From a virus, in IMG/VR virus record IMGVR_UViG_3300020047_002759: DNA of 55,117 bases; one strand, given 5' to 3'. Under the pieces are notes generated by a model, which saw only the letters and a program-made list of their open reading frames with translations, was not told the DNA's origin and ran no database searches. The translations under genes were made by a program, and so were the position numbers. Positions 409 through 38,649 of the stretch are shown piece by piece (the stretch's first letter is position 1; each line of letters begins with the position of its first letter).

Positions 409-3381
409 ATGGTAGATATTGCAAAACTACAAAAGAAAAGGAATACGCTTTTTCTTGCCCCCAAACGCAAGTTGACCAGCGTTATAAAGCCTACAACGGT
501 TGACACTACGCCTGTTGCTTCTGCACCCTATGTGCCATCCTCATCAATCAACACGTCCGCTGGATCGGGCACTTCGGTAATTGCACCAACAACCACAACA
601 ACGTCAACAACATCAGCGCCCCCCACAGCGCCAGCGGCACCCAAAACCAACCCAATAACCGATACGCTTAAAAATGCCGCCGTCGTTGGCGGCACCGCTT
701 TGGCGGCCAAAGCAATTATTGATTATTACAATAAGCCTGCCGCGCCTGCAACAAATACAACAACTGCTCCTGTAACCAAGCCGACAACCTCACCAGCCGC
801 ACCAGCCGCACCAGTGGTTAAGCCCCCTACCTCGGTAGTAATACCGCCTGCGTTACAAAAAGAACAAGACGCGCGGGTTGCGGCGGCAAACACCGCAAAG
901 GCGGCGGCAGATCACAACGCGTTGGCTGGCTCGTTTGATCAGGGCACAAAGGTTGGCTTACCTACCAACACAATTCCCAACAACACCCCAGCAAGAGCAA
1001 GCACCATTGATGAGTCAATGTTTGATGATCCTCTTGATCAGGGACAAAAGCTTGGGTTAGAAGAAAACGTTATTCCCAACAACACGCCTGCTGAGGCTGG
1101 CACTATTGATGAGTCAATGTTTGATTTTGAAGATGAGTACGTCCAAGACGACTTAGGCAATATTTACAAAATGATTGACGACAAGCCCGTCTTGATTCGT
1201 TCCGCAGAAGTTGATGAAGACATTTCTGAGGAGGACTATGACCTATTTGGTTACAGCCCTGAAGAAACTGATACAGGCACTGAGCTTGGTTTAGATTACA
1301 ACACCATCCCCAACAACACCCCTGCTGAGGCCAGCACCATTGATGAGTCAATGTTCGATGATCCAACAGGAAGCGCAGAGCCCTCACCAGTGCTTGTGCA
1401 AGATGAAAATGGCAACTTATTTTTGGCTAACGCAGATGGATCCTACACGCCCGCCGACGCCGAAGGTAATGCTGTGGGTGAGCCAACATACATTGGCGGC
1501 AACGAGGAAGGTGGCGGCACAGAATACGCTGACAATAATTACGGCGACACAGCCTTAGACACTGGCGGCGATGTTGGCGGCTATGAGGCTTATGACGATG
1601 CAGGTAACTTGTGGTTTGTTGGTGATGATGGATCGTTCAATTTAATTGAGTCCGCATCCGAAGAGCCCGCGTATGAACAGCCTGCTTACGAGGACAGCAA
1701 TGCTGGTGGCTATGAAGCCCGCGACGCCGACGGAAATCTATGGCACGTTAATGAGGACGGGTCATACGACTTAGTCGAGTCCGCTTATGAAGAACCCGCT
1801 TATGAAGAGCCAGCTTACGAAGACAGCAATGCTGGTGGATATGAAGCCTACGACGACGCAGGTAACTTGTTTTTTGTTGGCGATGACGGCTCATTTACTT
1901 TGCTTGAGTCGGCAAATGAGGAGCCTGATTATGGTTATGACTTTGACCATGACCTTGGCTATTATGAAGAGCCCCCACCGTATATTGAGCCTGATTTAAG
2001 TTATTTAGATGATTTCACATACGAAGAGCCCGACTATGGGTATGACTTTGACTATGACCCCGGCTACTACGAGGAGCCGTTTTATAACGATTACGAATCC
2101 GATTTAAGCTATTTAGATGATTACAAACGAGGTGGCCAAGTGCAACAAATGAAAAAAGGCGGCTTGCCGCATTTCTACACAGGCGGCGGCGCTTATGATT
2201 CTCTAGACGAAGATTATGTGGATGACTATCAAACCAACAGCAATAGTTCAGGGTATTACAACTCAGATGACTATGACGTTAACAATTCTGATTCAAACTA
2301 TTACAACTCAAATGATTATGCTGTTAATAACGACAACTCAGAATATTACACGTCAGTCAACAACGACAACTCGAGCTATTACGATTCATACGACTTAAAA
2401 GATGACGAAGTTCTCATGGAAGATGAAGATGGCCGAAAATTTGCCATTGATTCAAATGGCGATTATCGGTTGGTGCAAGATTCAAAATTCCCAACAAATG
2501 CAGATCCAACAAAACCAACTTATCGAGCAGAAACTGGAGTAGTTAATAACGACACATCCAATTACACAGGCGTTCCAAAGACCTCAAGCGGTAGCGGCGG
2601 TAGCGGCTTCAACTATAAAGACCTTTTCAGCACAGACAACATCAAGGCACTTGCTGGCGCGGGATTGGGTGCCGCTGGTTTGATGACTCTTTACAATTCT
2701 TTTAAGGGTAATGAGTCAACTTACAAACCTGCGGCTTACACGCCACCAGCGATCCCTAAGCGCACAACTGACTTTGGTATGGGCCCAGCAAAAACAGTCA
2801 CGCCAACTATGGGCGGCTTGCAAACAATGACGCCAAGCCAGCAAGAGGAGTTGTATACAAACTTGGGCGTGGCTGGGTACGAGATGGAGCACGAAGACCC
2901 CGTTGAGGATACCGTCGAGGATCAGCCTATGGCAGACGGTGGCTTTGCACAGCCGCAAACAAGTCAATCCAACTCTTCGTATTTCACTTATGGCGTACCA
3001 CAAGACCCATTAGAGGTGCTTGGTGTGAAGCAACCCCAAGAAAAATCGCAAAACGGCGGCTTGCAAATGAGGCGAGGTGGCTTGCCCCACCTGACCGCAG
3101 ATGTGCCTATAGTTCAAGGGCGCAAAGATTACCGCCAAGGCGCGGCAGTCAATGGCAAGGGGGATGGGCAAAGCGACGACATCCCTGCCATGCTGGCTGA
3201 TGGAGAATACGTCATTGACTCTGATGTTGTTGCCGCGCTAGGCAATGGGTCAAACAAAGCTGGCGCTGAAGTGTTAGACAAGTTTCGCGAGGCCATCCGC
3301 ACTCACAAGCGATCAGCGCCAATTGGCAAAATTCCACCAAAGGCTAAATCGCCCTTGGCTTACCTGAAAGAGGCAACATAA
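409..3381 (+). CDS. Hyper-acidic, repeat-rich large virion (internal/ejection-type) protein, function unknown
   Basis: 990-aa ORF with AGGAAG about 6 nt upstream of the ATG. It has a Pro/Thr/Ala-rich N-terminus, 3x 'IPNNTPAEA.TIDESMFD' and 3x 43-aa 'GGYEA.D..GNL..V..DGS..L.ES..EEPAYE'. It also has an Asn/Tyr/Asp tract, 'YKRGGQVQQMKKGGLPH' and 'QNGGLQMRRGGLPH' motifs, and the C-terminus 'SDDIPAMLADGEYVIDSDVVAALG'. Confidence 0.75.
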   Translation: MVDIAKLQKKRNTLFLAPKRKLTSVIKPTTVDTTPVASAPYVPSSSINTSAGSGTSVIAPTTTTTSTTSAPPTAPAAPKTNPITDTLKNAAVVGGTALAAKAIIDYYNKPAAPATNTTTAPVTKPTTSPAAPAAPVVKPPTSVVIPPALQKEQDARVAAANTAKAAADHNALAGSFDQGTKVGLPTNTIPNNTPARASTIDESMFDDPLDQGQKLGLEENVIPNNTPAEAGTIDESMFDFEDEYVQDDLGNIYKMIDDKPVLIRSAEVDEDISEEDYDLFGYSPEETDTGTELGLDYNTIPNNTPAEASTIDESMFDDPTGSAEPSPVLVQDENGNLFLANADGSYTPADAEGNAVGEPTYIGGNEEGGGTEYADNNYGDTALDTGGDVGGYEAYDDAGNLWFVGDDGSFNLIESASEEPAYEQPAYEDSNAGGYEARDADGNLWHVNEDGSYDLVESAYEEPAYEEPAYEDSNAGGYEAYDDAGNLFFVGDDGSFTLLESANEEPDYGYDFDHDLGYYEEPPPYIEPDLSYLDDFTYEEPDYGYDFDYDPGYYEEPFYNDYESDLSYLDDYKRGGQVQQMKKGGLPHFYTGGGAYDSLDEDYVDDYQTNSNSSGYYNSDDYDVNNSDSNYYNSNDYAVNNDNSEYYTSVNNDNSSYYDSYDLKDDEVLMEDEDGRKFAIDSNGDYRLVQDSKFPTNADPTKPTYRAETGVVNNDTSNYTGVPKTSSGSGGSGFNYKDLFSTDNIKALAGAGLGAAGLMTLYNSFKGNESTYKPAAYTPPAIPKRTTDFGMGPAKTVTPTMGGLQTMTPSQQEELYTNLGVAGYEMEHEDPVEDTVEDQPMADGGFAQPQTSQSNSSYFTYGVPQDPLEVLGVKQPQEKSQNGGLQMRRGGLPHLTADVPIVQGRKDYRQGAAVNGKGDGQSDDIPAMLADGEYVIDSDVVAALGNGSNKAGAEVLDKFREAIRTHKRSAPIGKIPPKAKSPLAYLKEAT
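937..1362 (+). repeat. Three dispersed in-frame copies (937-1029, 1036-1125, 1270-1362) of a ~90-nt unit encoding 'D.G..(V/L)GL..N.IPNNTPA.A.TIDESMFD'
   Basis: Nucleotide and peptide repeats are read directly in CDS 409..3381. Confidence 0.8.
1576..1925 (+). repeat. About 2.7 tandem copies of a 129-nt (43-aa) unit starting at 1576, 1705 and 1834, followed by 2x 'EEPDYGYDFD.D.GYYEEP...DLSYLDD' up to about 2120
   Basis: 'GGYEAYDDAGNLWFVGDDGSFNLIESASEEPAYEQPAYEDSNA' recurs with exactly 129-nt spacing. Confidence 0.8.
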
Positions 3382-21117: not shown

Positions 21118-24100
21118 ATGGCTGATCCAAGCAAACTAATCCGAGGGGGCAAAGGGGCTAAGGCCGTGATGTCGCTGGCCGATCAGGTCAGAGCCGAGAT
21201 GGCCGCTGAGAAGGCGGCAACGCGTGCCCGAGGCTTTGGTGTCGCTGGCGAGGACTACGCTGACCCTAAGGTCAAGCCCACCATGAAATTCTCTGAGGCG
21301 CTTGGTAACACTGGCTCCGAGGGCAAGACCCTGAACCTTACTGAGGCTGACCGTTCACGTGTGCAAGGTGAAAACATGGGAGGCGTGGGCTTCTCAGGCT
21401 TACAGCTTTATTCAAAACCACATAGGGACGCCAACGTGTCGTGGGGCTTTGGCAGTGAGGAAATAGCTAAGCGCAAGTCTAAGAATGCCGATCCTGAGAA
21501 GAACGTATTCACAACCTACATTGGCTCACCTGACCAGCACAAGTCCAACAGCATCGTGGTCAGGGAGGCGCTCAAGAACGTGCAAGCGGCCAACAGCCAA
21601 AACCTGATTGACCCTGCGCAAATCAATTTGATAAATAAACGCATACGTGAGGCAAGGAGTAAGAGTGGCACGTTGCTGTTCCAGTCTGACTTTGACGTCA
21701 CCGACCCCCAAGCAATGAGCGCGGCAACCACCTTTGACCGCCGCACTGCTATCAGCAATGCATTGATGGGTATAGGGGTGCAGGGCCCCATGAAAAAGTT
21801 GGACTTTAAAAAAGCCAACCCCAACCTCGAATACAAAGACCCAGCGCAGATGGACAGCATATTGAGGCGTGAGACAGAGCCAATGCTGGAGGGCTTGCCT
21901 AACTACAGCGTGGGCCCGCGCCTGTTCACCTTGGACGGTGGCGTGGTCTACCGACCTGACCTCAACTTTGCTTTCCCTCATCAGACGACTGGCACCGACA
22001 TGGGCGTCATGTTTGAGATGCCAACAATCCGAGAAGCCGCACCTGACTTTATCAAGAAGAAGGGCTACAAACCCAAAGACGTAGTAAACGCACGCGCCAT
22101 GTCCATGGGTGCGCCGACTCAGTTTGTCAGTGAAGAATACTTGACCAACCTACAAAAGATTGGCAGGAAGAAGGGCGGCTTAGCCAGCATGGCCAAGGGC
22201 GGTGCGGCGCGTGGCATCAAGAAGCTCAAGGGTATTTACAACGAGGTAGAGACCAGCATGGGCAGGGGCAAGGGCGCTGACTTTGAGCAGACCGCATCGC
22301 CGCTAAACATCATCAAGGAGACTGGCGGTAATTGGTCACCCTCAGGTGAAATGGTTTACAAGTCTAATCTTGACCGTGAGTTAGAAAAACTTGAAAAGGG
22401 TAGATTTAATCCTAAGAGCAACAACATTAAGCTGATGCTTGAAGATGCTGTAAAAGCAGGCGACGCTCGTCAGGTTGAGGTCTTAACTACAAACTTACGC
22501 AGTGCCATTGGAAATGAAGCCGCCAACAAGTGGGTGCAATCCAACCTCAAGAACTACATCACCAAGCAGATGGCGACCAAGGACGACCCTGTTCGCAAGT
22601 TGGCTGAGGAAGGTATAACGGCGTTTCCTAAGAACGTAGATGAGTATGGTGACGTGGAGTTGCGCACTTATGGAAGCGCTAAGGCAAGGCAAAATCGTAA
22701 AGATACTGGTTATGTTCAAGCTGGAGTTTCTCAATCTCCCTTAGCAAAACATTACGAAACAATGACCGATGAGTCAATTTCTCCAAATATAGCCAAAGAA
22801 TATCAACGAATGCAAAATTTGCCGCCTATGCAAAGACCAGCGGGCGTGATTGATTCGCCTTGGTTACTCAAGCTAGACCCTGAGACGCCTATCTTTTCGT
22901 TAAGCCGAGACGCTGACTTTGACAAGTTGGGCTTTGGTCACATGATGGATGTCTTGCGTGAAGACGTTGCCGCTGGTCGCATTCGTCCTGAGAAGCTGAA
23001 TACGATAAGCATAGAGCAGGCGGTGCGTCGCACGCATGAGTATGACGAGACGCTTAAAGCAAATATGCTCAACGCAAGGATTGCAGAGCAAGCGAACGCA
23101 AATGTATTCAAAGAGTATCCTGAAGGGTACAAGTGGGTGCAGTTAGATCAGCCGGGTCAATTCAACCTTGAATCCGACATTATGGGTCACTCTGTGCGTG
23201 GGTATGAGCCACCCAAAGGTCACCCTGACTACACCGACATATCAGGCGACTCAGGACACGACACCTACGGTCAAGGTGGCTATGAGGCTATTAAGTCAGG
23301 CAGGGCTAAGGTTTATTCATTGCGTGACCCTAAAGGTCAATCGCACGTCACGGTTGAGGTTGGGCAAAATGGGTTGAGAGAACAATTTTTTAAGTTGCCA
23401 CAAAAAGAAAAAGAAAGAATAAATTCTACTTATAAGGGATGGGAATCAAAACTAGGACGTGAACCAACTCCTGAAGAGCATGATTCACAACTGTACAAAA
23501 TAATGTCCGAAATGGGTTATGCGCCTACTGAAAAAATTACCCAAATCAAAGGCAAGCAGAATGCCGCTCCCAATGAATCGTATCAACCGTATGTGCAAGA
23601 CTTTGTAAAGAGCGGAAATTGGTCTGACGTTGGCGACCTTGATAATACTGGGCTTGTAAGGATTTATGCTGAAAGTGAATTAGCGCAAACTCTTGGTAAA
23701 AAAGGCTTGCCTGTTCCAAAATATGCCAGTCAAGATGAAGTTTCTGAATTGTTGAAGCAAGCTGAAGTAGGCTCTTACAGAGATGCAAGTAAAGGCAAAA
23801 CTTGGATAAATGACGAGCATCCTGATTACAAAACAGACGCCCCTCCCGCAGAAGGCATGGCAAAGGGTGGATTGGCGTACATGGGCAAAGGCGGTGCCGC
23901 TAAGGGTGCCAAAAAAATAATGAGTCTTGCAGATCAGGTCAGGGCTGAAATGGCGGCAGAAAAGCAGTACGGCCAAATCAGTGGCATGGTGTCCAAGGTG
24001 GGCGAGGAGGGTCGCTCACCCATCATCCCAGTGCCCAACCGCTGGTTTCTGCAACCTGACAAGTTCCCCAACCAACAAAAGTTGATTGAGCGCGTCCTGC

Positions 24101-24660
24101 AACAGACTGGCATGAGGCGCGAGGACTTTCCCTCAGGCGCGTTCATCGACCCACGCACTGGCGATGTGCTTGACTCCCGCATCATGGACGACTTGGGCGT
24201 GGTCATCAACCCAGCAACCAACCGCCCCATGATGTCAGCCAAGGGTCAGTCAGGCCTTGAGGTGCTTGACCCCAAGACTGGCTCATACACCAAGAGCAAC
24301 TTGGTGCGCAAGGGCCTGTTCAAGCCCGAGGGCGGCGACCCAATACTCAACGACATGAGCTTTATTGCAACGATTGAGAAGGGTGACGTTGGTCACAAGT
24401 ACGGCTTGGCCACCGAGTACGCCAGCCCCACAGAATTGTTTAACACAAACACTGGTGCAAACCCAACGCTACGCCCAAGGAGTAGGGGCGACTTGTTTGG
24501 TGTGGGTGACGTGGTTGGCCAAGTCCGCATCGGCAAAAGCAATCCGCATGACGTGTACGAGAAGCTGTTTGTTGCGCCCAAGGGCTCTGATGTGCAAGGC
24601 AAAAAATTGAGCAAAGCCAAGGGTGGCTTAGCCCTGACATTACAAAGAAAGGCGGCTTAG
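21118..24660 (+). CDS. 1180-aa polyprotein-like multi-module virion protein (function unknown; the middle module may be PcfJ-like)
   Basis: Three unrelated modules are separated by 'RKKGGLASMAKGGAARGIKKLKG' (22165-22233) and 'MAKGGLAYMGKGGAAKGAKKI' (23857-23919). The leader 'MSLADQVRAEMAAEK' is present at 21169-21213 and at 23920-23964. The middle module contains 'GYKWVQLD...ESDIMGHSVRGY...KVYSLRDPKGQSHVTVEV...ITQIKGKQNAAP'. Confidence 0.8.
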   Translation: MADPSKLIRGGKGAKAVMSLADQVRAEMAAEKAATRARGFGVAGEDYADPKVKPTMKFSEALGNTGSEGKTLNLTEADRSRVQGENMGGVGFSGLQLYSKPHRDANVSWGFGSEEIAKRKSKNADPEKNVFTTYIGSPDQHKSNSIVVREALKNVQAANSQNLIDPAQINLINKRIREARSKSGTLLFQSDFDVTDPQAMSAATTFDRRTAISNALMGIGVQGPMKKLDFKKANPNLEYKDPAQMDSILRRETEPMLEGLPNYSVGPRLFTLDGGVVYRPDLNFAFPHQTTGTDMGVMFEMPTIREAAPDFIKKKGYKPKDVVNARAMSMGAPTQFVSEEYLTNLQKIGRKKGGLASMAKGGAARGIKKLKGIYNEVETSMGRGKGADFEQTASPLNIIKETGGNWSPSGEMVYKSNLDRELEKLEKGRFNPKSNNIKLMLEDAVKAGDARQVEVLTTNLRSAIGNEAANKWVQSNLKNYITKQMATKDDPVRKLAEEGITAFPKNVDEYGDVELRTYGSAKARQNRKDTGYVQAGVSQSPLAKHYETMTDESISPNIAKEYQRMQNLPPMQRPAGVIDSPWLLKLDPETPIFSLSRDADFDKLGFGHMMDVLREDVAAGRIRPEKLNTISIEQAVRRTHEYDETLKANMLNARIAEQANANVFKEYPEGYKWVQLDQPGQFNLESDIMGHSVRGYEPPKGHPDYTDISGDSGHDTYGQGGYEAIKSGRAKVYSLRDPKGQSHVTVEVGQNGLREQFFKLPQKEKERINSTYKGWESKLGREPTPEEHDSQLYKIMSEMGYAPTEKITQIKGKQNAAPNESYQPYVQDFVKSGNWSDVGDLDNTGLVRIYAESELAQTLGKKGLPVPKYASQDEVSELLKQAEVGSYRDASKGKTWINDEHPDYKTDAPPAEGMAKGGLAYMGKGGAAKGAKKIMSLADQVRAEMAAEKQYGQISGMVSKVGEEGRSPIIPVPNRWFLQPDKFPNQQKLIERVLQQTGMRREDFPSGAFIDPRTGDVLDSRIMDDLGVVINPATNRPMMSAKGQSGLEVLDPKTGSYTKSNLVRKGLFKPEGGDPILNDMSFIATIEKGDVGHKYGLATEYASPTELFNTNTGANPTLRPRSRGDLFGVGDVVGQVRIGKSNPHDVYEKLFVAPKGSDVQGKKLSKAKGGLALTLQRKAA

Positions 24661-24661
24661 T

Positions 24662-26419
24662 GTGAAACACCACGACTTATTGCACTCATGGGGTCACAGC
24701 AAGCTGGCTCGGCATATGGCAAGGGGCGGCATCGCTGAAGAGTTTGACGCAAACGCCCCCGACGAAGGCGATGAAGGCTCAGGCGCTGAGGCTCTTCGCC
24801 AAGAGTTGAATGAGATTACTAATAATTTTCCTAAGCCAACACCCAAGCCGTCAATGAGCATGGGTGGCAACGTGCGACGCTTTGATGGTGGTGGCTTTGT
24901 CGATCCTATGGGTGCCCCCTCCTCCGAGGTGGAGCCTGAGGATGCTGAGTTCATGCGCCGATTGGCCAAGAAGATTGCCCAAGCAACTGGCAAAGAGATC
25001 AAGCAACTTGCTACGCCTCGCGGGGCTAAGGACTTCACAGCCAACAGCATTGCCGCCACCTTGGCAGGGGGTACATCGGACATAGTGAACTTTGGCTTGC
25101 AAGGCGTTGATTATTTGCGAGAGCAAGCCGCAAAACAAAACAAGCGAGGCTACAAACGCGAATCGGTCATGGGTGGCGACATGGTTCCCCCAAAGGTTGA
25201 GCCATACGCAAGCGACAAGCCGTTCATGGGTTCCGATCAATTCCGCGATGCGTTTGAGCGGCAAGGGGTAACTTCAAAGGGAAGCCAAGAACAATTTCCA
25301 ATATTGGGCATGATTCCTGAGACGATTCTTAACCCAGTGGGGCCGCTGTCAGCAATAAAAGCCGCGCCAGCAATTTACAAGGGAGCCAAGACCGTGGTGG
25401 AAGAGGGTTTGCCCCGCGCCGCTGAGATGGGTGCCAACCGCGTGGTAAGCGACGTGCGCCGCCCATTTACGCCAGCAACATTTCCAACTGAGGCGACGGC
25501 CCCTGACCTTGGCCAAGGCACGTCCTATGGATTCAGGCAAGGCCTGAACGATAGGTTGTTGGCAAACCCCAAGCTTGGCACAGGCAAGGTCAAGGCAAGG
25601 GAAGGTCAAGGCACTTATGTAAACACAAAGGGAGAGCTTGAACTCAACCCTTTGCAAGCTATTGATGTGCCAAGGGCTGGCAATATTGGCGAGGGGCCAA
25701 AAGCCAACCAAAAATTGCGTCAACAGATTGCCCAAATGGGTGTTGATTTAAATCAAGAGGCTATGGCTGGCCACCGTTTTTTGCCCATGGCAACAAACAA
25801 CATTAAGGACGCATCAGCCATGTTGATCAAAACCAAAGAAGGGCTGAGCAAAGATCAAATTGCTGACCTTGCAAGGGCGCTTGGCGGCGATATGGTTGTG
25901 AGCCACAACCCCAAGCTAGGCGGTGTTGTAGTGTTCCCGTTTGGCCCTGTTACAAAAGGCAAAATACCAAGCGAGTTTCTTGCGGCACAAAGCGCGGCTA
26001 GCAAAGTGCTTGGCAAAGATGCAAAAATTCAATACGGTAAATCTGACTTTGAAAAAGACAGGCTGTTTAGGGACAAGTCACAATACAAAGACGCAGGCGC
26101 TACCTCAATGTCGGCAGAGCAACAGGCGTTGCGTGGCAAGTTACAGGGCGTGGAAAAGTTTATGTTCCCTGAGAGCGTCTCGGGCATCCCCGGCTCTGTG
26201 AAAGCCGCCCCAATGGGCGGTCTGCAACCTTGGTCTCGTGGTGCCGATTACCCAACTAGCGTGATTGGAATTGGGAACGGAGAAAAAGTAGAGTACCAGC
26301 CAGTAAATTTTTTAACTTCCGCAGAGGGGAAGCGTTATCCAAATTATCGGGAGGCTGAAAAAGAACGCGGACAGATGCTTGATGATTACCATAGAACCTT
26401 TCCCTCCAAAGCGCGTTAA
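24662..26419 (+). CDS. Large virion-associated protein, function unknown
   Basis: 585-aa ORF directly after the 1180-aa gene. The GTG start is uncertain (alternative ATG at 24716, 'MARGGIAEEF'). It contains 'MSMGGNVRRFDGGGFVDPMG'. Confidence 0.7.
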   Translation: MKHHDLLHSWGHSKLARHMARGGIAEEFDANAPDEGDEGSGAEALRQELNEITNNFPKPTPKPSMSMGGNVRRFDGGGFVDPMGAPSSEVEPEDAEFMRRLAKKIAQATGKEIKQLATPRGAKDFTANSIAATLAGGTSDIVNFGLQGVDYLREQAAKQNKRGYKRESVMGGDMVPPKVEPYASDKPFMGSDQFRDAFERQGVTSKGSQEQFPILGMIPETILNPVGPLSAIKAAPAIYKGAKTVVEEGLPRAAEMGANRVVSDVRRPFTPATFPTEATAPDLGQGTSYGFRQGLNDRLLANPKLGTGKVKAREGQGTYVNTKGELELNPLQAIDVPRAGNIGEGPKANQKLRQQIAQMGVDLNQEAMAGHRFLPMATNNIKDASAMLIKTKEGLSKDQIADLARALGGDMVVSHNPKLGGVVVFPFGPVTKGKIPSEFLAAQSAASKVLGKDAKIQYGKSDFEKDRLFRDKSQYKDAGATSMSAEQQALRGKLQGVEKFMFPESVSGIPGSVKAAPMGGLQPWSRGADYPTSVIGIGNGEKVEYQPVNFLTSAEGKRYPNYREAEKERGQMLDDYHRTFPSKAR

Positions 26420-29276: not shown

Positions 29277-29458
29277 TGCGTTTAATCAATGACCTCATAA
29301 GCGCTGTAAAAGCGCGTCAGACAGAGATCAGGTACTCGTTGGCTGATGGCAACGCCATCAACTTTGAGTCCTATCAACGAATGGTGGGTCAATACTCAGG
29401 ATTGCAGGAGTCGTTAGACATCCTTGATAACTTAATGAAAGAAAAAGACGATGAGTGA
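29276..29458 (+). CDS. Hypothetical small protein
   Basis: 60-aa helical ORF, translationally coupled on both sides. Confidence 0.55.
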   Translation: MRLINDLISAVKARQTEIRYSLADGNAINFESYQRMVGQYSGLQESLDILDNLMKEKDDE

Positions 29459-30877: not shown

Positions 30878-31417
30878 ATGGATAAACGTCTAAAGAAAAA
30901 TCTATCTGCTGGTGGACGCGAAAATCGCGCGAGTCTTGATCCCGATCGAGAGGCACCTGAGGATAAGTTCGCATCATCCCACGAACGTAAGAAAATGTGG
31001 ACGGATGAGTGGACACAAAGCGCACTGCCCAACGTCCCTGAATTACAGGGATGGCACCTTTGCTGGTTATCAACAACCAACGGGTACGACAGCATTGATA
31101 AGCGTATGCGACTCGGATATACACCAGTGAAAGCTGAAGATATAAACGGGTTTGAAAATTGGCGCGTAAAGGCTGGCGAACATGTAGGTTTCATCGCGTG
31201 CAACGAGATGCTCTTGTTCAAAATTCCTATGGAACAGTATCAAGAAATCATGGCGCACTTTCACCACGATGCTCCTCTTGATGAGGCGAACAAAATTCGC
31301 TTACAGGCCGAGGCGCAACAAGGTCGAGACTCTTCAGGCCGCAGGCTTGGACAGGTTGAAGGCGAGGGTTTGGACAGTATTGACACCCCGATTCCTGCTC
31401 CGCATTTTGCTGGGTAG
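30878..31417 (+). CDS. Head-module protein, function unknown
   Basis: 179-aa ORF containing 'SALPNVPELQGWHLCWLSTTNGYDSIDKRMRLGYTPVKAEDI'. No family was recognised. Confidence 0.65.
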   Translation: MDKRLKKNLSAGGRENRASLDPDREAPEDKFASSHERKKMWTDEWTQSALPNVPELQGWHLCWLSTTNGYDSIDKRMRLGYTPVKAEDINGFENWRVKAGEHVGFIACNEMLLFKIPMEQYQEIMAHFHHDAPLDEANKIRLQAEAQQGRDSSGRRLGQVEGEGLDSIDTPIPAPHFAG

Positions 31418-32043: not shown

Positions 32044-32958
32044 ATGGCCGCTCCAATGCGCAGTACGGACTTTAGAAGCATCGTTGAACCAATTCTCAAC
32101 GAGTGCTTCGATGGAGTCTATGATCAACGTACCGACGAATGGTCACGAGTTTTTCGTGAGCAAGAAGGTATTCCCCGCAACTACCACGAAGAACCCGTTC
32201 TTTACGGTTTTGGTGCCGCTCCTCAGTTGCCTGACGGTTCTCCTGTCAGCTACCAACAAGGTGGCGTGCTGTTTCTGAAACGCTATGTGTACAACGTGTA
32301 TGGCCTCGCCTTCGCATTGACCAAAGTGTTGGTGGAAGACGGCGACCACATCCGCATCGGTAACGTGTATGCACGCCACTTGGCGCAATCCCTGATCGAA
32401 ACCAAAGAGACACTGTCTGCGAACGTGCTTAACCGCGCATTCAACTCAGCGTATCAAGGTGGCGACGGTGTTGCTCTGAACAGCGCATCGCATCCCATCG
32501 TGAACGGTACAACCAGCAACTTGTTGACCACCGCCGCAAACTTGTCACAGACATCGCTTGAGCAGATGTTGATTCAAGTGCGTCAGGCGATTGACAACAA
32601 CGGCAAGAAGATTCGTTTGGTGCCCCGCCAATTGGTGGTCGCCCCCGGCAACATCTTCCAAGCCGAAGTGCTGTTGAAATCTGTTCTGCGTACTGGTACA
32701 GCAAACAACGACATCAACCCTGTCAAAGCAATCGGCCTCTTGGACGAAGGCGCGGCAGTGCTGTCACGTTTGACCTCCAGCACCGCATGGTGGGTTCAGA
32801 CCGACGCGCCTGAAGGCATGAAGCTTTTGATGCGCCGTAAGCTGGAAAAAACCATGGAAGGCGACTTCGAGACTGACTCTATGCGCTACAAGGCGACAGA
32901 GCGTTACGACGTTGGCTTCACTGACTGGCGTGCCATGTACGGCACACCCGGCGTCTAA
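32044..32958 (+). CDS. Major capsid protein (HK97-fold type, putative)
   Basis: 304 aa containing 'GGDGVALNSASHPIV...IRLVPRQLVVAPGNIFQAEVLLKS...NNDINPVK...STAWWVQTD...ATERYDVGFTDWRAMYG', which is typical of phage MCPs. It is followed by a strong terminator/attenuator. Confidence 0.7.
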   Translation: MAAPMRSTDFRSIVEPILNECFDGVYDQRTDEWSRVFREQEGIPRNYHEEPVLYGFGAAPQLPDGSPVSYQQGGVLFLKRYVYNVYGLAFALTKVLVEDGDHIRIGNVYARHLAQSLIETKETLSANVLNRAFNSAYQGGDGVALNSASHPIVNGTTSNLLTTAANLSQTSLEQMLIQVRQAIDNNGKKIRLVPRQLVVAPGNIFQAEVLLKSVLRTGTANNDINPVKAIGLLDEGAAVLSRLTSSTAWWVQTDAPEGMKLLMRRKLEKTMEGDFETDSMRYKATERYDVGFTDWRAMYGTPGV

Positions 32959-32974
32959 CAGTAAACGCCAAGCA

Positions 32975-33005
32975 GGGGGGGGTCAAAAGCTCCTCCCTTT
33001 TTTTT
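32975..33005 (+). terminator. Rho-independent terminator/attenuator after the capsid gene
   Basis: GGGGGGGG-TCAAAAG-CTCCTCCC stem (with G-U pairs) is followed by T8. Confidence 0.7.
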
Positions 33006-33039
33006 AATATCTTGTCAAGCTTTTCAAGGAGAAGACAAA

Positions 33040-34017
33040 ATGCCACAATTTTCAGACGACCTATTTCTCGGTACTGCGCAGACGTTCATGGGCGTTACTC
33101 GCCAACAAAACGTAGCGACATTTACCGCATCGCAAGCAACAACCGTATTGACAGTTACCGCTGTTCTCAATGGCGTGCCACTTCAAGTTGGTATGTTCAT
33201 TAACGGTACTAGCGTCACCGCTGGAACTTTCATCACCTCTTTTGGCACAGGCCTTGGCGGCATTGGTACTTACAACGTCAACAACTCAGCTACTGCCACC
33301 ACAACAACCATGGTTGGTGGTCTTGAAGACTACTTGCCTGATCCATCGCAAATGGATTTGGGTGTTGGCCCCCTTGGCCGTGTTTACATTTGGGACACCG
33401 TTCCTGTTGTATTGAACTCGGCAAACATTGTTGCTTCTTCTGCACCTGCGGCGGCTGGTAACTTGACGTTATTGGCAACAAGTTTGTTAGGTGGCCGATA
33501 CATCGTTCGCCAAGACGGCGTTCCTGCTATTCAGCTAGACGTGCCACGCGCACTGACAATAAATACCTCTACCACTGCCCGCGCAATTACGGTCACAGGG
33601 TATGACATTTACGGTCAGGCAATGAGCGAAGTTATTACGGTGTCTGTTGCCGCAACTCCCGTGACTGGTAAAAAAGCATTTTTTCAAATCATCAGCGCTT
33701 CAATTTCGGGCTCAGCTACAGCCGTAACCGTGGGCACAAGCGATGTTTTAGGCTGTCCTATCCGCGTAACTGACTTTGGCTACATCCAGCACATTGGGTA
33801 CAACAACACGTTGGCTGATGCGGCAGGTACCTTTGTTAACGCTGACCAAGCCACCGCTACGACCACAACTGGTGATGTGCGCGGTACTTACACGCCTGCG
33901 TCCGCAACTGACGGTATCAAGCGTTTGGTTATGTCAATAGCTGTTCCTGCTATTGCCTGCGGCCCCAACGCTACCCGCTTGGGTGCGCTTGGTGTAAACC
34001 AAAACTTATCTGTCTAA
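33040..34017 (+). CDS. Virion structural protein, function unknown
   Basis: 325-aa Thr/Gly/Val/Ala-rich ORF with AAGGAG upstream. Confidence 0.7.
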   Translation: MPQFSDDLFLGTAQTFMGVTRQQNVATFTASQATTVLTVTAVLNGVPLQVGMFINGTSVTAGTFITSFGTGLGGIGTYNVNNSATATTTTMVGGLEDYLPDPSQMDLGVGPLGRVYIWDTVPVVLNSANIVASSAPAAAGNLTLLATSLLGGRYIVRQDGVPAIQLDVPRALTINTSTTARAITVTGYDIYGQAMSEVITVSVAATPVTGKKAFFQIISASISGSATAVTVGTSDVLGCPIRVTDFGYIQHIGYNNTLADAAGTFVNADQATATTTTGDVRGTYTPASATDGIKRLVMSIAVPAIACGPNATRLGALGVNQNLSV

Positions 34018-34029
34018 GGGGAGGCTGAA

Positions 34030-35973
34030 ATGGCTCAATTTAAACCAATGGTCAAGATGACCACCAACGAGCCTTCAGTTATGCTGAAGCTCAAAAAGGG
34101 TGGCAAGGTAGCAAAAGCTGACGCGGCTGAATCCAAGTTTAAGAAGATGGCTGGTGGCGGCGCAATGTCAATGTTGGGAATGACTCCAGCGTTTGTTGGC
34201 CGCCCTGCGGTTAATGCGCTTGTCAAGAGCCCCGGCAAGCCCTCAATGTCTGCACGCAAAAAGGCAATGGCGGCCAAGAAGCCCGCCAAGAAGCCTCGTA
34301 TGCCCAAAGAAATGTCAATGATGCCTCCCATGATGCCCCCCATGAAAAAGGGTGGCTCTGCCGACAAGTCTCAAGACAAAGCCATGGTCAAAAAGGCTTT
34401 CAAACAGCACGACATGCAAGAGCACAAAGGCGGCAAAGGCACCAAGCTGTCCCTTAAAAAGGGCGGTCAAACCTACGCTGACGGCGGTTCAGTAAGCCAC
34501 AGTCCTATGTCTACCCCTGCAAATGCAAAGCCACCTACCGCTAATCGTGGTGTTGGTGAGTATGTGCAGACAGCCATGCGCACGGCAAAGAACAACCCCA
34601 AAGGTTACGCCTATGGCGGTTCTGTCAAAACAGTTGTGATGTCGACTGACAAGAAAAGGGGCAACAACGGTTTTGCAACTGGTGGTGTTGCCATGAGTAA
34701 CGCTGGTGGCTACAAAAAAGGCGGCAAACCCAAAAAAATGGCGATGGGTGGTATTGGTCAACGACCCCTAACAGCGGAAGAACTGAATCGGAAAGATCCG
34801 AATCCCGGAGCTATACGTACTAATCCATTAATGGAAAAAGTGAAGTTACAGATAGCGGGTCTTAATGACCCCGACCGTGGTGGCGGCAATAGACCTAGAC
34901 CTCGCCTTCCACTTATTAATACCGACCCTGATGGCGGCAATAGACCTAAACCTCGCACCACCAAACCTCTACTTATTAATGATGATAATGACCCCGATCG
35001 TCGTGGCGGCAATAGACCTAGACCACAGACAATTGACCTGTCTTCCATGCACAATGACCCCGATCGTCGTGGCGGCAATAAACCCCGCACACCACTGCCA
35101 CAAGCTATTGATATGCCAAAGCCTAATATGCCAAACCGTACACCACGGCCACAGGCTATTGATATGCCAAGGCCCAATATGCCCATGAAAAAAGGCGGCA
35201 AGGCCATGATGATGGGCGGTTACGCAACTGGTGGCGTTCCTATGTCCAATGCTGGAGGCTACAAAAAGGGGGGCAAAACCTCAAAAAAAGCTTACGCGAC
35301 GGGGGGAACTGTTAACACAGGCAAGCCCGTCGCGATGCAAGAGGGCAACAAGCCTATTCCAGCACCCAAGCGCCAGCAAAACTTCAGCGGCACCTACAAA
35401 AATGGCGGTGAAGTAGAAAAGATGGCTATGGGTGGACGAATGGGTCAAAAGCCTGCCCAAACAATTCGCACTGCGCCCATCGGTAGCTCACAAGCTACAA
35501 GGGATTTCTTTGCCAGCAAGGGCAAGCGCCCTAGCTACAAAGATGGCGGCAAGGTGCCCAAGATGCTTGGTGGCGGCATATTGACCCGAGCGGTAGCGGC
35601 GGGTAAAAACCCTGCTCGTGCGCCAACGGGTGGCGGCGTTATTGCTAGAGCCACGCAAGCAATGCAAAAAATGCCCAAGCAATCCCCTTCAACAGGAAAC
35701 GGCATTATTGCTAGAGCCATGCAAACCATGGGCCCTAGCAACCGAACTATGAGTCCTAAAGTAATTGCTGAGACGCAAATGCTATTGGAAAGGCAAGCCG
35801 CCGACAGGAAACGACGCGGATTAAAAGATGGCGGCGGCGTAGAAAACAAAAGCTTGGTGAAAATTAACAAAGCCCAAAATGCTCCTGCGGTAAAAGCAAG
35901 CAAGGCTGACACTAATTTAAAGTATCCTGAGACCATGAACAGTCCTCAAAAGACGCCAAAACTGAAGTGTTAA
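34030..35973 (+). CDS. Hyper-basic Lys/Arg/Pro/Gly/Met-rich repeat protein (putative internal core / DNA-associated protein)
   Basis: 647 aa with more than 20 GG dipeptides in the contexts 'LKKGGK', 'MKKGGS', 'YKKGGKPKKMAMGG', 'YKNGGEVEKMAMGG' and 'YKDGGKVPKMLGGG'. It also carries tandem 'DPDR(R)GGN(R/K)PRP' repeats. Confidence 0.75.
   Translation: MAQFKPMVKMTTNEPSVMLKLKKGGKVAKADAAESKFKKMAGGGAMSMLGMTPAFVGRPAVNALVKSPGKPSMSARKKAMAAKKPAKKPRMPKEMSMMPPMMPPMKKGGSADKSQDKAMVKKAFKQHDMQEHKGGKGTKLSLKKGGQTYADGGSVSHSPMSTPANAKPPTANRGVGEYVQTAMRTAKNNPKGYAYGGSVKTVVMSTDKKRGNNGFATGGVAMSNAGGYKKGGKPKKMAMGGIGQRPLTAEELNRKDPNPGAIRTNPLMEKVKLQIAGLNDPDRGGGNRPRPRLPLINTDPDGGNRPKPRTTKPLLINDDNDPDRRGGNRPRPQTIDLSSMHNDPDRRGGNKPRTPLPQAIDMPKPNMPNRTPRPQAIDMPRPNMPMKKGGKAMMMGGYATGGVPMSNAGGYKKGGKTSKKAYATGGTVNTGKPVAMQEGNKPIPAPKRQQNFSGTYKNGGEVEKMAMGGRMGQKPAQTIRTAPIGSSQATRDFFASKGKRPSYKDGGKVPKMLGGGILTRAVAAGKNPARAPTGGGVIARATQAMQKMPKQSPSTGNGIIARAMQTMGPSNRTMSPKVIAETQMLLERQAADRKRRGLKDGGGVENKSLVKINKAQNAPAVKASKADTNLKYPETMNSPQKTPKLKC
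34864..35190 (+). repeat. Imperfect in-frame tandem repeats: 4x 'N(D/T)DPD(RR)GGN(R/K)P(R/K)P...' then 2x 'PQAIDMP(K/R)PNMP'
   Basis: 'aatgaccccgatcgtcgtggcggcaatagacctagacc' and its variants recur, and 'caagctattgatatgccaaagcctaatatgcc' occurs twice. Confidence 0.8.
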
Positions 35974-35978
35974 AACCT

Positions 35979-36004
35979 GCAAGGGCTTCGGCCCTTGCTT
36001 TTTT
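35979..36004 (+). terminator. Rho-independent terminator/attenuator
   Basis: GCAAGGGC-TTCG-GCCCTTGC is followed by T6. Confidence 0.8.
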
Positions 36005-36015: not shown

Positions 36016-38649
36016 ATGTCTGTACAAGTTGCTCAACCGTATCCCGATACCCGTGGAAATATCCAAGGCGACGTTGAAAACGCCGCTCGTTCACACGCAT
36101 ATGATGGCGTTGACAAGCTACGCATATCAGCACCCCAATCTTTAATTGATACCGACTTTGAATATGGCGTACAGCCAACAAAGTGGGAAACAATCCAAAT
36201 GCAAAACAATCGGCAGAGCATGTACTATGACGCTCAGGTGCCAGTTCCAATTGTTGCGGCAACAGGTATTACATCCGATAACGCATCACCACGCTCATTG
36301 ATTACTGTCTTTACAACCGCAACAAACTTAGCGGTTGCTCAGCCAATATACATTCAAGATGCTTTGAATGTTTTACTCAACGGTTGGTATTACATAGAAT
36401 CATTTTCAAGTGGCGTAAGCTTTACGTACCGCGCCGCAGGGCAAGTGGCAACTGGCACAAACTATTTCAACCCAGCAAACACCTATGCGTATGCAGGTCA
36501 GTTTTACAGCAACGGTGGTTTTAAATTAGCCGCATCGGCTTTTACTTTTTCAGGCACAACCATTACCGTTACAACCGTTGACCCACATGGCATGAGCGCG
36601 AATAGCCAAATTTATGTTACTGGCTTAACTGGCGGCACGCCTGCTCCAAATGGCGCGTTTGTCCTCACCACTGCGCCGACAAACAACACGTTTTCATACA
36701 CGGCAATCACAGCGCCAACGGTGGCAATTGTCAATACCGTTGGAAACACAAACATATTTGCTCGTCCCGCTGGCAATGTGATACCACGCCCATTTGATGG
36801 TGGTGTTTCATTTACCGCTGGTGCAAACGTGCCAAACGCGCAAATCATTCGTCAAACACGCCGATACTTCCGCTACCAGTCAGGCAAGGCAATCCAGTTT
36901 TCAACTGGATCATCCATGGCCCCAGTGGTGCAAGTTAGCACCATGACGTCAAGCGGAACCCTCATTACAACCGCAACTGTACAGGCTCACAATCTTGCTG
37001 TTGGCACAATTATTAAAGTGGCCAATGCGGTTCAGGCTGAATACAACGGCACTTTTACAATTCTCACAACGCCCACAATAAACACGATGACATATCGTGC
37101 TACTACAACCCCATCAGCGGCAACAGCAACCACCCTGACAGAATTTCGATTAAATCCTTTTCAATGGTATGGAAGCGTAAACCGCGTTGGCATTTTTGAT
37201 TTGCAAAATGGTTTGTTCTTTGAATATGATGGAAGAACGCTATTTTGTGTGCGTAGGTCAAGCACAACCCAGTTGCAGGGCACTGTTCAAGTAACCCAAG
37301 GCAGTGGCTTAGTCACGGGACTGGGAACCGCATTTGCAACTCAACTCAACACGCGAGACTATATTGTCATTCGCGGTCAATCGTACCGTGTTTTAAATAT
37401 TGCAAGCGATACACAGTTGTATATCTCACCTGAATACCGTGGAGCAACCTACGTAGGATCTACTGTTGGTGGCTTTGTTGTTTCAAGAACAATTGATACA
37501 AGGGTTCCTCAGTCAGGGTGGTGGGATCCATGCAATGGAACTGGTCAATCAGGCTACAACCTTGACATAACCCGCATGCAGATGTGGTACCTTGATTTTT
37601 CTTGGTACGGTGCTGGCGTTGCTAGGTTTGGCTTTAGAGCCACTGGTGGCGCAATTACTTACGTCTATGGTTACGTTCACAACAACACAGAGTATCAAGC
37701 CTACATGCGGTCAGGAAACTTGCCTGCCCACTATGAGGTTGATGGCTTGTTGCCTGACACGCAAATCACCGCAACCTATGACAACACTCAAATTGTTGGG
37801 TCAAGCTTGTCTGTTTTAAGCACTGCGGGCTTCCCCCCAAGCGGAAGCATTCGCGTTCAACAAGCTGGTAACGGCGGCTCAGCGGAAGTTATGACATATT
37901 CGCTTTTAACGCCTACAACATTTGTGATCAGCGGAAGAGCGCAAACAGGCGCTTCACTGACCAACCAAAGCTTTACCTTTAGCTCAACGGCAATTTGTTC
38001 AGTTGAATACGTCTCCCCTGATACCGCTGTTGCGTTGAGCCATTGGGGCTCTTCGGTGATCATGGATGGAAGATTCGATGATGATAAATCACTGATTTTT
38101 AACTTTGGTTCTTTTGCAACCATTTCCATCCCCGGTGGCGCAACCGTGCCTATTCTTGCTTTACGCATAGCCCCATCGGTTGACAGCGGTCAAACTGGAA
38201 CATTTGGCAACAAGGAAATTGTGAACCACATGCAATTACAGCCCGTTTCTCTTGGTTTAATTACCAGCGGGCCGTTTTTGATTCAATTGACATTGAACGC
38301 CTTTACAACTAACTTTTCAGGCTCATTTGTTTCTCCCACAATTGGTTCGCAAGTCTCATCTTCGCTGGCTCAAGTTGCTTTGAACACACTCAACACCGCA
38401 ACGATTACGGGTGGAGAATCAGCCGCCGCCGCGTACACCAACACCAACGGTGAAACATCGCTTGATTTGTCACAGGTGCGCGATTTAGGTAACTCAATAT
38501 TGGGCGGTGGTTTGGTGAACACTGTTCCAAACTCGCGTGCAAACGTGTTTCCTGACGGCCCTGATATTTTGTACATTGCGGCCACAAACACCACTGCTGG
38601 CGCGTTGAACTTGCTGGCGCGTTTGTCTTGGAAAGAGTCACAAGCTTAA
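36016..38649 (+). CDS. Large virion structural protein (tail hub/nozzle or receptor-binding candidate), function unknown
   Basis: 877 aa with AGAGGTG upstream. Small beta-domain motifs recur ('IYVTGLTGGTPAPNGAFVLTTAPTNNTFSYTAI', 'IIKVANAVQAEYNGTFTILTTPTINTMTYRATT'), and there is a jelly-roll-like core ('VGIFDLQNGLFFEYDGRTLFCV...WYLDFSWYGAGVARFGF'). Confidence 0.75.
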   Translation: MSVQVAQPYPDTRGNIQGDVENAARSHAYDGVDKLRISAPQSLIDTDFEYGVQPTKWETIQMQNNRQSMYYDAQVPVPIVAATGITSDNASPRSLITVFTTATNLAVAQPIYIQDALNVLLNGWYYIESFSSGVSFTYRAAGQVATGTNYFNPANTYAYAGQFYSNGGFKLAASAFTFSGTTITVTTVDPHGMSANSQIYVTGLTGGTPAPNGAFVLTTAPTNNTFSYTAITAPTVAIVNTVGNTNIFARPAGNVIPRPFDGGVSFTAGANVPNAQIIRQTRRYFRYQSGKAIQFSTGSSMAPVVQVSTMTSSGTLITTATVQAHNLAVGTIIKVANAVQAEYNGTFTILTTPTINTMTYRATTTPSAATATTLTEFRLNPFQWYGSVNRVGIFDLQNGLFFEYDGRTLFCVRRSSTTQLQGTVQVTQGSGLVTGLGTAFATQLNTRDYIVIRGQSYRVLNIASDTQLYISPEYRGATYVGSTVGGFVVSRTIDTRVPQSGWWDPCNGTGQSGYNLDITRMQMWYLDFSWYGAGVARFGFRATGGAITYVYGYVHNNTEYQAYMRSGNLPAHYEVDGLLPDTQITATYDNTQIVGSSLSVLSTAGFPPSGSIRVQQAGNGGSAEVMTYSLLTPTTFVISGRAQTGASLTNQSFTFSSTAICSVEYVSPDTAVALSHWGSSVIMDGRFDDDKSLIFNFGSFATISIPGGATVPILALRIAPSVDSGQTGTFGNKEIVNHMQLQPVSLGLITSGPFLIQLTLNAFTTNFSGSFVSPTIGSQVSSSLAQVALNTLNTATITGGESAAAAYTNTNGETSLDLSQVRDLGNSILGGGLVNTVPNSRANVFPDGPDILYIAATNTTAGALNLLARLSWKESQA

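Follow-up and report, generated by a model that had tools for sequence, protein, structure and literature searches.

A conserved basic Gly-Gly-module protein of predicted disorder, encoded after the major capsid gene in uncultured podovirus-like phages

Tailed phages are generally thought to neutralise their packaged DNA with small ions and, to our knowledge, only a few of them, for example T4, carry abundant basic internal proteins. The internal proteins of T4 are basic, are present in about 300 copies each and combine variable, dispensable-looking bodies with a shared short N-terminal capsid-targeting sequence; they are loaded into the head before the DNA and ejected together with it (PMC9026906). 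In single-stranded RNA and DNA viruses, disordered and positively charged arms of the capsid protein neutralise the genome at the inner surface (PMC7096446). Adenovirus pVII and pX (mu) are basic DNA-associated core proteins in a double-stranded DNA (dsDNA) capsid, and GG processing motifs are common to several adenovirus core proteins. The cargo-loading peptides of encapsulins, short sequences of Gly, hydrophobic residues and Lys, dock cargo on the luminal face of an HK97-fold shell. A gene that recalls all of these systems lies in a stretch of viral DNA of 55,117 nucleotides, IMG/VR virus record IMGVR_UViG_3300020047_002759, referred to below as the window. The product of its open reading frame (ORF) 34030-35973 on the + strand is given the working name BASIC. 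The BASIC gene is a real late gene, conserved across a large lineage of uncultured phages that look podovirus-like, and its product is tentatively read here (probability roughly 0.4) as a capsid-internal polycation, the GG modules of which serve as shared recruitment or processing motifs.

BASIC has 647 residues, an isoelectric point (pI) of 10.69 and a net charge (K+R-D-E) of +82, as computed from its sequence, and is made up largely of K (12.8%), G (12.7%), P (10.0%), A (9.9%), M (7.4%) and R (6.0%); its sole Cys is the final residue, Cys647. A preliminary description of the window had reported a hyper-basic ORF of this length with more than 20 GG motifs. Its coordinates are exact, the protein contains 27 Gly-runs (32 overlapping GG), and all the strings quoted there, LKKGG, YKKGGKPKKMAMGG, YATGG, YKDGGKVPKMLGGG, MSMMPPMMPPMKKGG and the Met/Pro run included, are present. 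The motif [YFLM]-x-x-G-G occurs in 19 copies, compared with 1.4±1.1 (maximum 5) in 1000 full shuffles and 5.2±2.0 (maximum 12) in 1000 shuffles with Gly fixed, and its number far exceeds an effect of composition. The four DPDR(R)GGN(R/K)PRP units described there as tandem are real as diverged 49-nt DNA copies (34864-35101, 73-78% identity), but with a spacing of 51-72 nt they are not strictly tandem; the two PQAIDMP(K/R)PNMP units do form a tandem pair of 48-51 nt (35085-35183, 89-90% identity). The two flanking hairpins were likewise found, with stem-loops at 32974-32998 and 35979-35998 that are each followed by a T-run. The features of the gene are as follows.

32974..33006, + strand: terminator-like hairpin and T-run 3′ of the major capsid gene
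34016..34024, + strand: Shine-Dalgarno sequence AAGGGGAGG, which overlaps the stop codon of the upstream gene and ends 5 nt 5′ of the ATG (from the sequence)
34030..35973, + strand: BASIC gene, polycationic GG-module protein of 647 aa, predicted to be disordered (ORF call, composition, family and AlphaFold2)
34030..34104, + strand: N-terminal module MAQFKPMVKMTTNEPSVMLKLKKGG, residues 1-25, near-invariant in the family
34363..34467, + strand: helix block DKSQDKAMVKKAFKQHDMQEHKGGKGTKLSLKKGG, residues 112-146, which ends in LKKGG, with invariant H127, D128, Q130 and H132 and a predicted helix at 113-131
34668..34738, + strand: module (F/Y)ATGGV.MSNAGGYKKGGK, copy 1, a 71-nt direct repeat 79% identical to 35217-35287
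34777..35184, + strand: Pro/Arg-rich window-specific insertion, residues 250-385, with four DPDRRGGNRPRP and two PQAIDMPKPNMP units (alignment and DNA repeats)
35217..35287, + strand: module ATGGV.MSNAGGYKKGGK, copy 2, direct repeat of 34668-34738
35755..35910, + strand: C-terminal helix-GGG-helix, residues 576-627, the sole confidently predicted structure (AlphaFold2)
35968..35970, + strand: codon of Cys647, the last residue
35979..36004, + strand: intrinsic-terminator-like hairpin and T-run directly 3′ of BASIC (from the sequence)

BASIC belongs to a large, unnamed family found only in metagenomes, which has conserved blocks and is more than low-complexity sequence. At least 2847 relatives, all of them unnamed and without a Pfam domain, came from a word-seeded search. 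When 1.84 billion representatives were searched exhaustively with a profile, 713 clusters (50% identity) reached E<=1e-3 and 408 reached E<=1e-10. Relatives are encoded by at least 582 stretches in IMG/VR. They are typically 360-460 aa long (median 422), with a pI of 10.0-10.7 and a median of 20 Gly-runs, and the net charge over the family is +33 to +82 per molecule. Among the 120 relatives listed in the first search the lengths are 355-647 aa, with BASIC of the window as the longest, and longer relatives appear in the profile search (for example P0221, 752 aa). Pfam, PHROGs and NCBIfam contain no match for BASIC. Whole BASIC used in tblastn against 50,697 phage records also matched nothing and missed even the homologue in the related complete phage genome MW202545.1, because the low-complexity filter masks BASIC and so hides the family from BLAST; with the N-terminal 40-mer as a query, MW202545.1 was the sole match. 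No cultured BASIC-bearing phage is among these 50,697 records, and a literature search on the GG motif, DUF6321 and basic internal proteins of podoviruses found nothing relevant. The metagenome-assembled genome bins that hold BASIC homologues are mostly of Burkholderiales/Betaproteobacteria, and the hosts are probably freshwater Betaproteobacteria, which the bins hint at without establishing. The family is described here for the first time, and BASIC groups only with it and with the mini relatives of a sister clade considered below.

In the alignment, fixed blocks alternate with indel-rich linkers. Across 120 sequences with a mean column identity of 21%, 21 of the 25 positions of the family N-terminus, MGQFKPMVKM.TTEPSV.LKLKKGG, are at least 90% conserved. 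Further blocks are TPA.VGRPAVNAPV..PGKPSM..RRKAM and DKAM.KKAFKQHD.QEHKGGKGT.L.LKKGG, the latter with the invariant H127, D128, Q130 and H132, and the most conserved repeated modules read TGGV...NAGGYK.GG...KKAYATGG...SGTYK.GG. Invariant positions include G24/G25, G401/402, G409/410, G414/415 and G459/460, and the residues that precede Gly-Gly over the family are Y/M/L/F at -3 (64%), K/A at -2 (70%) and K/T/A/N at -1 (71%). Cys is the last residue in 104 of the 120 members and in 56 of 63 loci. None of the other 18 aligned members has the insertion of the window (residues 250-385), which is flanked by the two 71-nt copies (79% identical) of the ATGGV.MSNAGGYKKGG module. In P0204 this position is occupied by a P/R-rich repeat of unrelated sequence, and other members have long His-rich linkers, so that the linkers vary freely and the modules do not. 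Two C-terminal types exist within the family. BASIC of the window carries every family block together with the family synteny, and the homologue has a Shine-Dalgarno-like site and a start codon of its own in 84 of 85 loci, which excludes the alternative considered in the preliminary description that the region is a rapidly evolving linker of a larger protein. That description had proposed a homologue search and had overlooked the conserved family with its fixed blocks, the window-specific nature of the P/R repeat block and the sharing of the motif with a polyvalent protein.

Structure prediction describes BASIC as essentially unstructured apart from a few helices. The AlphaFold2 model, built with 120 sequences, has a mean predicted local distance difference test (pLDDT) score of 51, with values below 50 for 391 of the 647 residues and no β strand at all. 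Short helices are placed at 73-80, 113-131 (the H-D-x-Q-x-H block), 488-495 and 558-565, and C-terminal helices at 576-595 and 607-627, in which the blocks 581-590 and 611-620 have a mean pLDDT of 91; the C-terminal helices are not conserved family-wide. In the charge-hydropathy (Uversky) plot, the mean hydropathy of 0.404 lies under the disorder boundary of 0.459. Both calculations, like the pI among those that the preliminary description had suggested, agree with its statement that the protein has no ordinary globular stretch.

The gene keeps its position in the head module. The gene order of the module, constant over about 90 related loci, is portal, GroES-like protein, coiled-coil protein of 327 aa, p179, p193, major capsid protein (MCP), variable p325 in most but not all loci, BASIC, a variable gene, DUF6321 protein and adaptor. 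The genes next to BASIC to which the argument returns are the following.

30878..31417, + strand: p179, head-module protein of 179 aa with N-terminal RLKKNLSAGGR at 30890-30919 (motif conserved)
32044..32958, + strand: MCP of HK97 type, Phage_capsid_4 / Mu gpT-like (Pfam and PHROG matches)
32104..32106, + strand: codon of MCP Cys21, which co-occurs with BASIC
33040..34017, + strand: variable gene p325, 325 aa, 12 nt upstream of BASIC and between the same two terminator-like hairpins

The hairpin 3′ of BASIC consists of GCAAGGGC-TTCG-GCCCTTGC followed by TTTTTT, and a strong hairpin with a T-run is found 3′ of the homologue in 42 of 85 loci. We infer that p325, which is β-rich and has weak tail-fibre-like matches, and BASIC are co-transcribed. 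Since BASIC lies in a short terminator-bounded unit after the capsid gene, its arrangement would be that of an abundant head component. The roles of scaffold and ejection protein seem to be already taken, because a coiled-coil-like scaffold candidate of 327 aa stands immediately upstream of the capsid genes and the genome has a set of ejection proteins that includes an SLT-domain internal virion protein. Profile searches of PDB sequences gave no usable match for BASIC, p179, p193 or MCP.

The GG motif of BASIC recurs in other proteins of the same genome, often in pairs 7-9 residues apart. [YFLM]xxGG occurs 7 times (1.4 expected) in an acidic protein of 990 aa at 409-3381 (e.g., YKRGGQVQQMKKGGLPHF and MRRGGLPH), 5 times (1.8 expected) in a protein of 1180 aa at 21118-24660 (e.g., RKKGGLASMAKGG, MAKGGLAYMGKGG and KAKGGLA), 3 times (1.2 expected) in a protein of 585 aa at 24662-26419 (e.g., MARGGI) and once each in two small basic proteins at 38659-39054 and 39065-39442. 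Two of these loci are needed below.

409..3381, + strand: acidic ejection-module protein of 990 aa, with YKRGGQVQQMKKGGLPHF at 2122-2190 and MRRGGLPH at 3067-3090 (motifs kept in homologue L124)
21118..26419, + strand: polyvalent-type protein, split into 1180 and 585 aa, between terminase and portal, with paired phi-x-K-G-G (motifs and homologues)

The acidic protein, with a pI of 4.1 and a net charge of -112, adjoins the SLT-domain internal virion protein, and it had been named in the preliminary description as the counterpart of BASIC with the same GG motif, which the motif count upholds. Its 60%-identical homologue L124 keeps the three GG sites and the K/R-GG pairs, whereas the string 'SNAGGY' common to BASIC and the acidic protein is not kept there and is probably a chance match. 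The acidic protein also contains three copies of IPNNTPA.A.TIDESMFD and three of GGYEAYDDAGNLW..., as well as two hydrophobic transmembrane-like stretches; at its C-terminus, the segment GDGQSDDIPAMLADGEYV gives matches to PHROGs with a tape-measure annotation.

Homologues of the 1180-aa protein (35-72% identity) have the paired motifs at equivalent places and keep the C-terminal KKGGL. They are single proteins of 1250-2440 aa, and the 1180-aa product is regarded as a polyvalent protein because the longer ones carry ART-PolyVal, PcfJ and ParB_N domains; the window's own copy of 1180 + 585 aa has no Pfam match, and its split falls exactly at the motif pair KAKGGLA.../...MARGGIA. Proteins of the polyvalent class are encoded beside portal and terminase genes and are predicted to be packaged and injected (PMC5512222), and the paper that defines them makes no mention of glycine or linker motifs (PMC5512222; Iyer et al., 2017). 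The polyvalent neighbour shares phi-x-K-G-G with BASIC, which itself is neither enzymatic nor multidomain. Some polyvalent homologues start with MAKIKPLARAADTNPSVVMSL, in which 8 of 21 residues are as in BASIC, an anecdotal likeness. A segment near the N-terminus of the window's polyvalent protein, SLADQVRAEMAAEK, recurs near residue 935.

In p179, the N-terminal RLKK.L.AGGR is found in every BASIC-bearing locus and is missing in Caulobacter phage RW and in the sister-clade loci. This protein is 75-97% identical among 120 database relatives, where His60, Cys62, Cys108, His129 and His130 are invariant; over the related loci the conservation is 92% for Cys62 and 98% for Cys108, with Val in place of Cys108 in phage RW. 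p179 could hold a Zn site or be an unrecognised enzyme. Phage RW is a cultured relative with an MCP 75% identical and the same head genes; it has neither BASIC nor the gene between terminase and portal, and contains one GG motif in 16.8 kb and none in the p179 N-terminus. A metagenomic sister clade, with MCPs 81-88% identical to that of RW, encodes mini GG basic proteins of 130-250 aa 1-2 kb downstream of MCP. With 5-9 phi-x-x-GG motifs, often a terminal Cys and the block (A)QDKAM.KKA.KQHD.QEHKGGKGT.LKLKKGG or AVHKHEKAMHKGEPLTKLAKGG, these mini proteins are true relatives of BASIC, although their N-termini differ from that of BASIC (MGCKYVKEFDFG..., MTVGKVKDFNFSS...) and some are fused to DUF6496 at either end, a domain that BASIC does not have. 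The mini proteins are encoded in loci L126-L205 (e.g., from 4854 in L145, 5087 in L177 and 5122 in L202), and the one of L202 consists almost wholly of MAKGGM repeats.

A possible physical link between BASIC and the shell comes from two cysteines. MCP has Cys21 in 54 of 55 BASIC-bearing loci and in none of 43 loci without BASIC, and in the sole exception, L009, MCP has Ser21 and BASIC has no terminal Cys. Cys21 maps to the N-terminal arm region of the Pfam capsid model, and the N-arm of HK97-type procapsids faces the interior. A disulfide tether between Cys647 and MCP Cys21 may exist, a weak hypothesis that this co-occurrence supports and the sister clade weakens.

How BASIC relates to the described systems can be stated point by point. 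Like T4 IPI, IPII and IPIII, BASIC is basic and has a short conserved N-terminus and a body that varies between relatives. The T4 internal proteins, however, are folded proteins of 8-20 kDa, whereas the BASIC family is of 40-69 kDa and predicted to be disordered, and there is no sequence similarity between them. The capsid-targeting sequence of T4 is cut by gp21 at L/I-x-E, whereas the BASIC N-terminus ends in KKGG, and neither a gp21-like protease, in the scans, nor such sites were found; T4 is moreover a myovirus with a core scaffold, and its internal proteins are without the approximately 20 internal motif repeats of BASIC. Adenovirus sites are (M/L/I)XGG-X and (M/L/I)XGX-G, and the hydrophobic residue of BASIC is one position further out; BASIC is Lys-rich and not Arg-rich, has no homology to the adenovirus core proteins and is accompanied by no adenain-like gene among those scanned. 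The encapsulin peptides are a working model for the GG modules by analogy only, in that their consensus differs and BASIC has about 20 copies against one. Basic arms are Arg-rich and part of the capsid protein, whereas the charge of BASIC would come in trans, from Lys, in a tailed dsDNA phage. BASIC would thus work most like T4 internal proteins and more loosely like adenovirus core proteins or basic arms, but by homology, motif, protease and composition it falls outside each of these groups. Of the core-protein likeness drawn in the preliminary description, the DNA-associated core or internal role still fits best, but a sequence relation to pVII/mu, protamines or T4 internal proteins was not found.

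The favoured reading, a capsid-internal polycation, can be put as a course of events. BASIC would be produced in quantity from the small transcription unit after the capsid gene and loaded into the procapsid via its N-terminal module, its approximately 20 GG modules or both. There it would form a lining of counter-ions that cannot diffuse away from the packaged DNA, possibly tethered via the terminal Cys; unfolded from the start, it could follow the DNA out through the portal. Proteins bound for the interior, among them the polyvalent protein, the acidic ejection protein and p179, would carry the GG module as their mark, a short linear motif common to the whole lineage. By arithmetic, the 109,992 phosphate charges of the genome would be neutralised to about 7% by 100 copies of BASIC, and to about 31% if there were one copy for each MCP of a T=7 shell. 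The sequences themselves show the gene, its family, charge, predicted disorder and synteny, the enrichment and sharing of the motif and the Cys/MCP association; virion presence, interior location, DNA neutralisation and the motif as a recruitment signal are inferred from these. Several points weigh against this reading. The interior location is deduced solely from disorder, charge, neighbouring genes and motif sharing. The Lys/Gly/Met/Pro make-up is unlike that of the Arg-rich classical DNA condensers, and in a T=7 capsid a 55-kb genome together with several large internal proteins would leave little room. Among GenBank phage records, a BASIC homologue occurs only in MW202545.1 (57457 bases), an uncultured phage genome from a freshwater spring. 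A hidden Markov model of the BASIC N-terminus found no other protein at E<10, so that a shared N-terminal targeting signal is not supported. As for the cysteines, the association of Cys21 with BASIC is mostly one of clade versus clade and may therefore reflect a single historical event; mini proteins of the sister clade ending in Cys occur with MCPs without Cys21, and five loci combine MCP Cys21 with a BASIC that does not end in Cys.

An extended form of the polycation reading appears unlikely. In it, a Gly-Gly 'address code' would send proteins into the head, including a polyvalent anti-host effector and the acidic ejection protein, with either the capsid interior or an unrecognised maturation enzyme, p179 for instance, as its reader. 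BASIC, a dedicated carrier of about 20 such modules, would line the inner wall through a Cys647-Cys21 disulfide as a polycationic counter-ion in trans, a counterpart in tailed phages to the basic arms of small viruses or to adenovirus core proteins, and maybe an adaptation by which packaged DNA stays neutralised in freshwater of low ionic strength. Doubtful, too, is that the motifs are cut, with BASIC as a maturation substrate or polyprotein that a GG-directed phage or host protease would turn into 28 peptides, and the polyvalent and acidic proteins into domains, much as T4 gp21 or the adenovirus protease cuts core proteins. GG occupies P2-P1 in the sites of several viral cysteine proteases, the motif pairs of the polyvalent protein lie between modules, with the gene of the window split exactly at one pair, and p179 has an invariant His60 and a nearly invariant Cys108, which is Val in RW, a phage without GG proteins. 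Polyvalent proteins have been proposed to be proteolytically processed (PMC5512222), and a single short motif that recurs in several head or ejection proteins, and many times in one, is what marks the T4 maturation protease system (PMC9026906), so that cleavage stays a live though unsupported rival. Against it, scans of the large ORFs and of the genes for head, tail, ejection and lysis against one or more of Pfam, PHROGs and NCBIfam, which left out about 35 short or early-region ORFs, met no peptidases other than lysis enzymes and no match to clan CE cysteine proteases or other peptidase families, and HHsearch-style annotation of bases 1-50000 of the 57457 of MW202545.1 contained no protease. 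Known GG-specific proteases prefer a hydrophobic residue at P4, whereas that of BASIC is at P5, and the adenovirus protease (adenain) consensus is matched at only 4 type-1 and 3 type-2 sites, near chance (1.4±1.2 expected), with [YFLM]xxGG as the main motif. p179 has only about 90 structured residues and no detected PDB relative, and its AlphaFold2 model (47 database relatives, pLDDT 45) is unusable as a test for a protease. Cutting at every Gly-run would give 28 fragments of 5-67 residues, and those with no more than 5-10 would escape from the head and be unable to condense DNA. The fragmentation into basic peptides put forward in the preliminary description thus gained no support and stays conditional.

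A transient role in assembly is improbable to a similar degree. As a second scaffold, or as a charge chaperone that might, for instance, neutralise the acidic protein of -112 and the acidic portal for joint assembly, BASIC would be expelled or degraded before DNA packaging or in its course; it is indeed a multivalent, disordered product of a head-module gene, its very acidic potential partner has the same motif, and its C-terminal helix-turn-helix (pLDDT up to 91) recalls the coat-binding end of the P22 scaffolding protein. However, a conventional coiled-coil scaffold candidate lies directly upstream of the capsid genes, removal would have no mechanism without a protease, and the C-terminal helices are not conserved, there being two C-terminal types. 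The high charge and the Tyr/Lys/Gly-rich 'sticker-spacer' composition would also suit a late nucleic-acid binder outside the virion, one that in the infected cell coats or condenses phage or host DNA or RNA, whether by phase separation, by compacting the nucleoid or by protecting DNA during replication, but the strict position between capsid and adaptor genes in about 90 loci, a motif in common with packaged-type proteins and a conserved N-terminus and terminal Cys, both unexpected in a generic DNA coat, make this quite improbable. Least expected of all is an external capsid cement or adhesion coat, which together with variable p325 would stabilise the capsid or stick to anionic cell surfaces. 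Genes right after MCP often encode decoration proteins, BASIC forms one hairpin-bracketed unit with the β-rich p325 and its weak tail-fibre-like matches, and its Lys/Gly/Tyr make-up is like that of adhesive proteins; but an exposed unfolded chain of 360-650 residues would be open to environmental proteases, the motif is common to proteins expected inside the capsid, and MCP Cys21 lies in the N-arm region, which from known structures would face the interior in HK97-type procapsids.

Other identities were considered for BASIC and set aside. A bacteriocin-type double-glycine leader, about 15-30 residues long with hydrophobic residues at -4, -7 and -12, would agree with a GG that ends at residue 25 and with the pair E-L at -8/-7 but not with the hydrophobic residue, which BASIC has at -5 instead of -4; neither a C39 peptidase nor an ABC exporter gene was found in the genome scans. 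The Pfam KGG repeat gave no match at E<=5 with BASIC segments and two relatives. Mimicry of the GroES mobile loop, suggested by GG before a hydrophobic residue and by the GroES-like gene of the phage, does not agree with the GG motif, which is without the hydrophobic tripeptide; the phage's own loop is TASGIVL. BASIC lies downstream of MCP, is mostly non-helical and leaves the position of a phage scaffolding protein to the 327-aa candidate. It has no domain match that would make it a polyvalent protein, an assignment that does hold, through homologues, for the neighbour at 21118-26419. With R 6.0% and K 12.8%, BASIC also differs from protamines and Arg-rich condensers, about half or more of which is Arg.

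The rest of the genome provides the setting. The ends of the window (1-121 and 54997-55117) are identical over exactly 121 nt, and the window is therefore a circular assembly and a complete genome of 54,996 bp. The genome has TerS/TerL, portal, an SU10-like adaptor, the SLT-domain internal virion protein and other ejection-type proteins, while family scans and the annotation of MW202545.1 contained no tape measure, tube or sheath; it looks podovirus-like. Across the junction, a reading frame of more than 1000 codons stays open from about 52.3 kb until nt 399. It lies shortly before the acidic 990-aa gene, and its product has a K/E/A-rich coiled-coil-like composition followed by PTGTLKPVT-type repeats. 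The GroES-like co-chaperonin gene at 29451-29885, with weak Cpn10 matches and the mobile-loop-like TASGIVL, stands between portal and scaffold and is kept in all related loci, phage RW included. Downstream of BASIC, 36016-38649 encodes a fibre-like structural protein of 877 aa that shares 37-39% identity, over about 95% of its length, with virion structural proteins of T4-like cyanophages (S-PM2, Syn1, S-RIM44 and others); since only 3-4 of about 90 related loci have this gene, it seems to be a host-recognition gene that entered after BASIC by horizontal transfer. The next gene, 38659-39054, encodes a basic 131-aa protein with a DUF6321 domain, and about 100-150 nt of it are 73-79% identical in DNA to Pelagibacter podophages HTVC168P and HTVC109P and Synechococcus podophages S-B28 and 7B11-B; DUF6321 genes lie between BASIC and adaptor in nearly all related loci. 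It is followed at 39065-39442 by a basic, extremely Pro-rich protein of 125 aa (SPPYPSPPYPSPPRPSPPRPP) that ends in VGMKKGGSINL. In the lysis region, 46845-47459 encodes a holin-annotated protein of 204 aa with an odd Cys/Lys-rich N-terminus, MACCIWTCCKPKKKLKPKFKKWK, and the ORFs scanned there with PHROGs (46077-46793 and 46845-47459) gave no spanin match.

A conserved head-module gene is thus present in hundreds of environmental phage contigs, not covered by Pfam, PHROGs and NCBIfam and hidden by the BLAST filter. If packaged, BASIC would represent a new type of phage core protein, and its motif would provide a simple rule for predicting which proteins are carried into the cell as well as a candidate handle for loading foreign cargo into capsids. 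A link between the electrostatics of packaged DNA and the habitat of the phage would then become testable.

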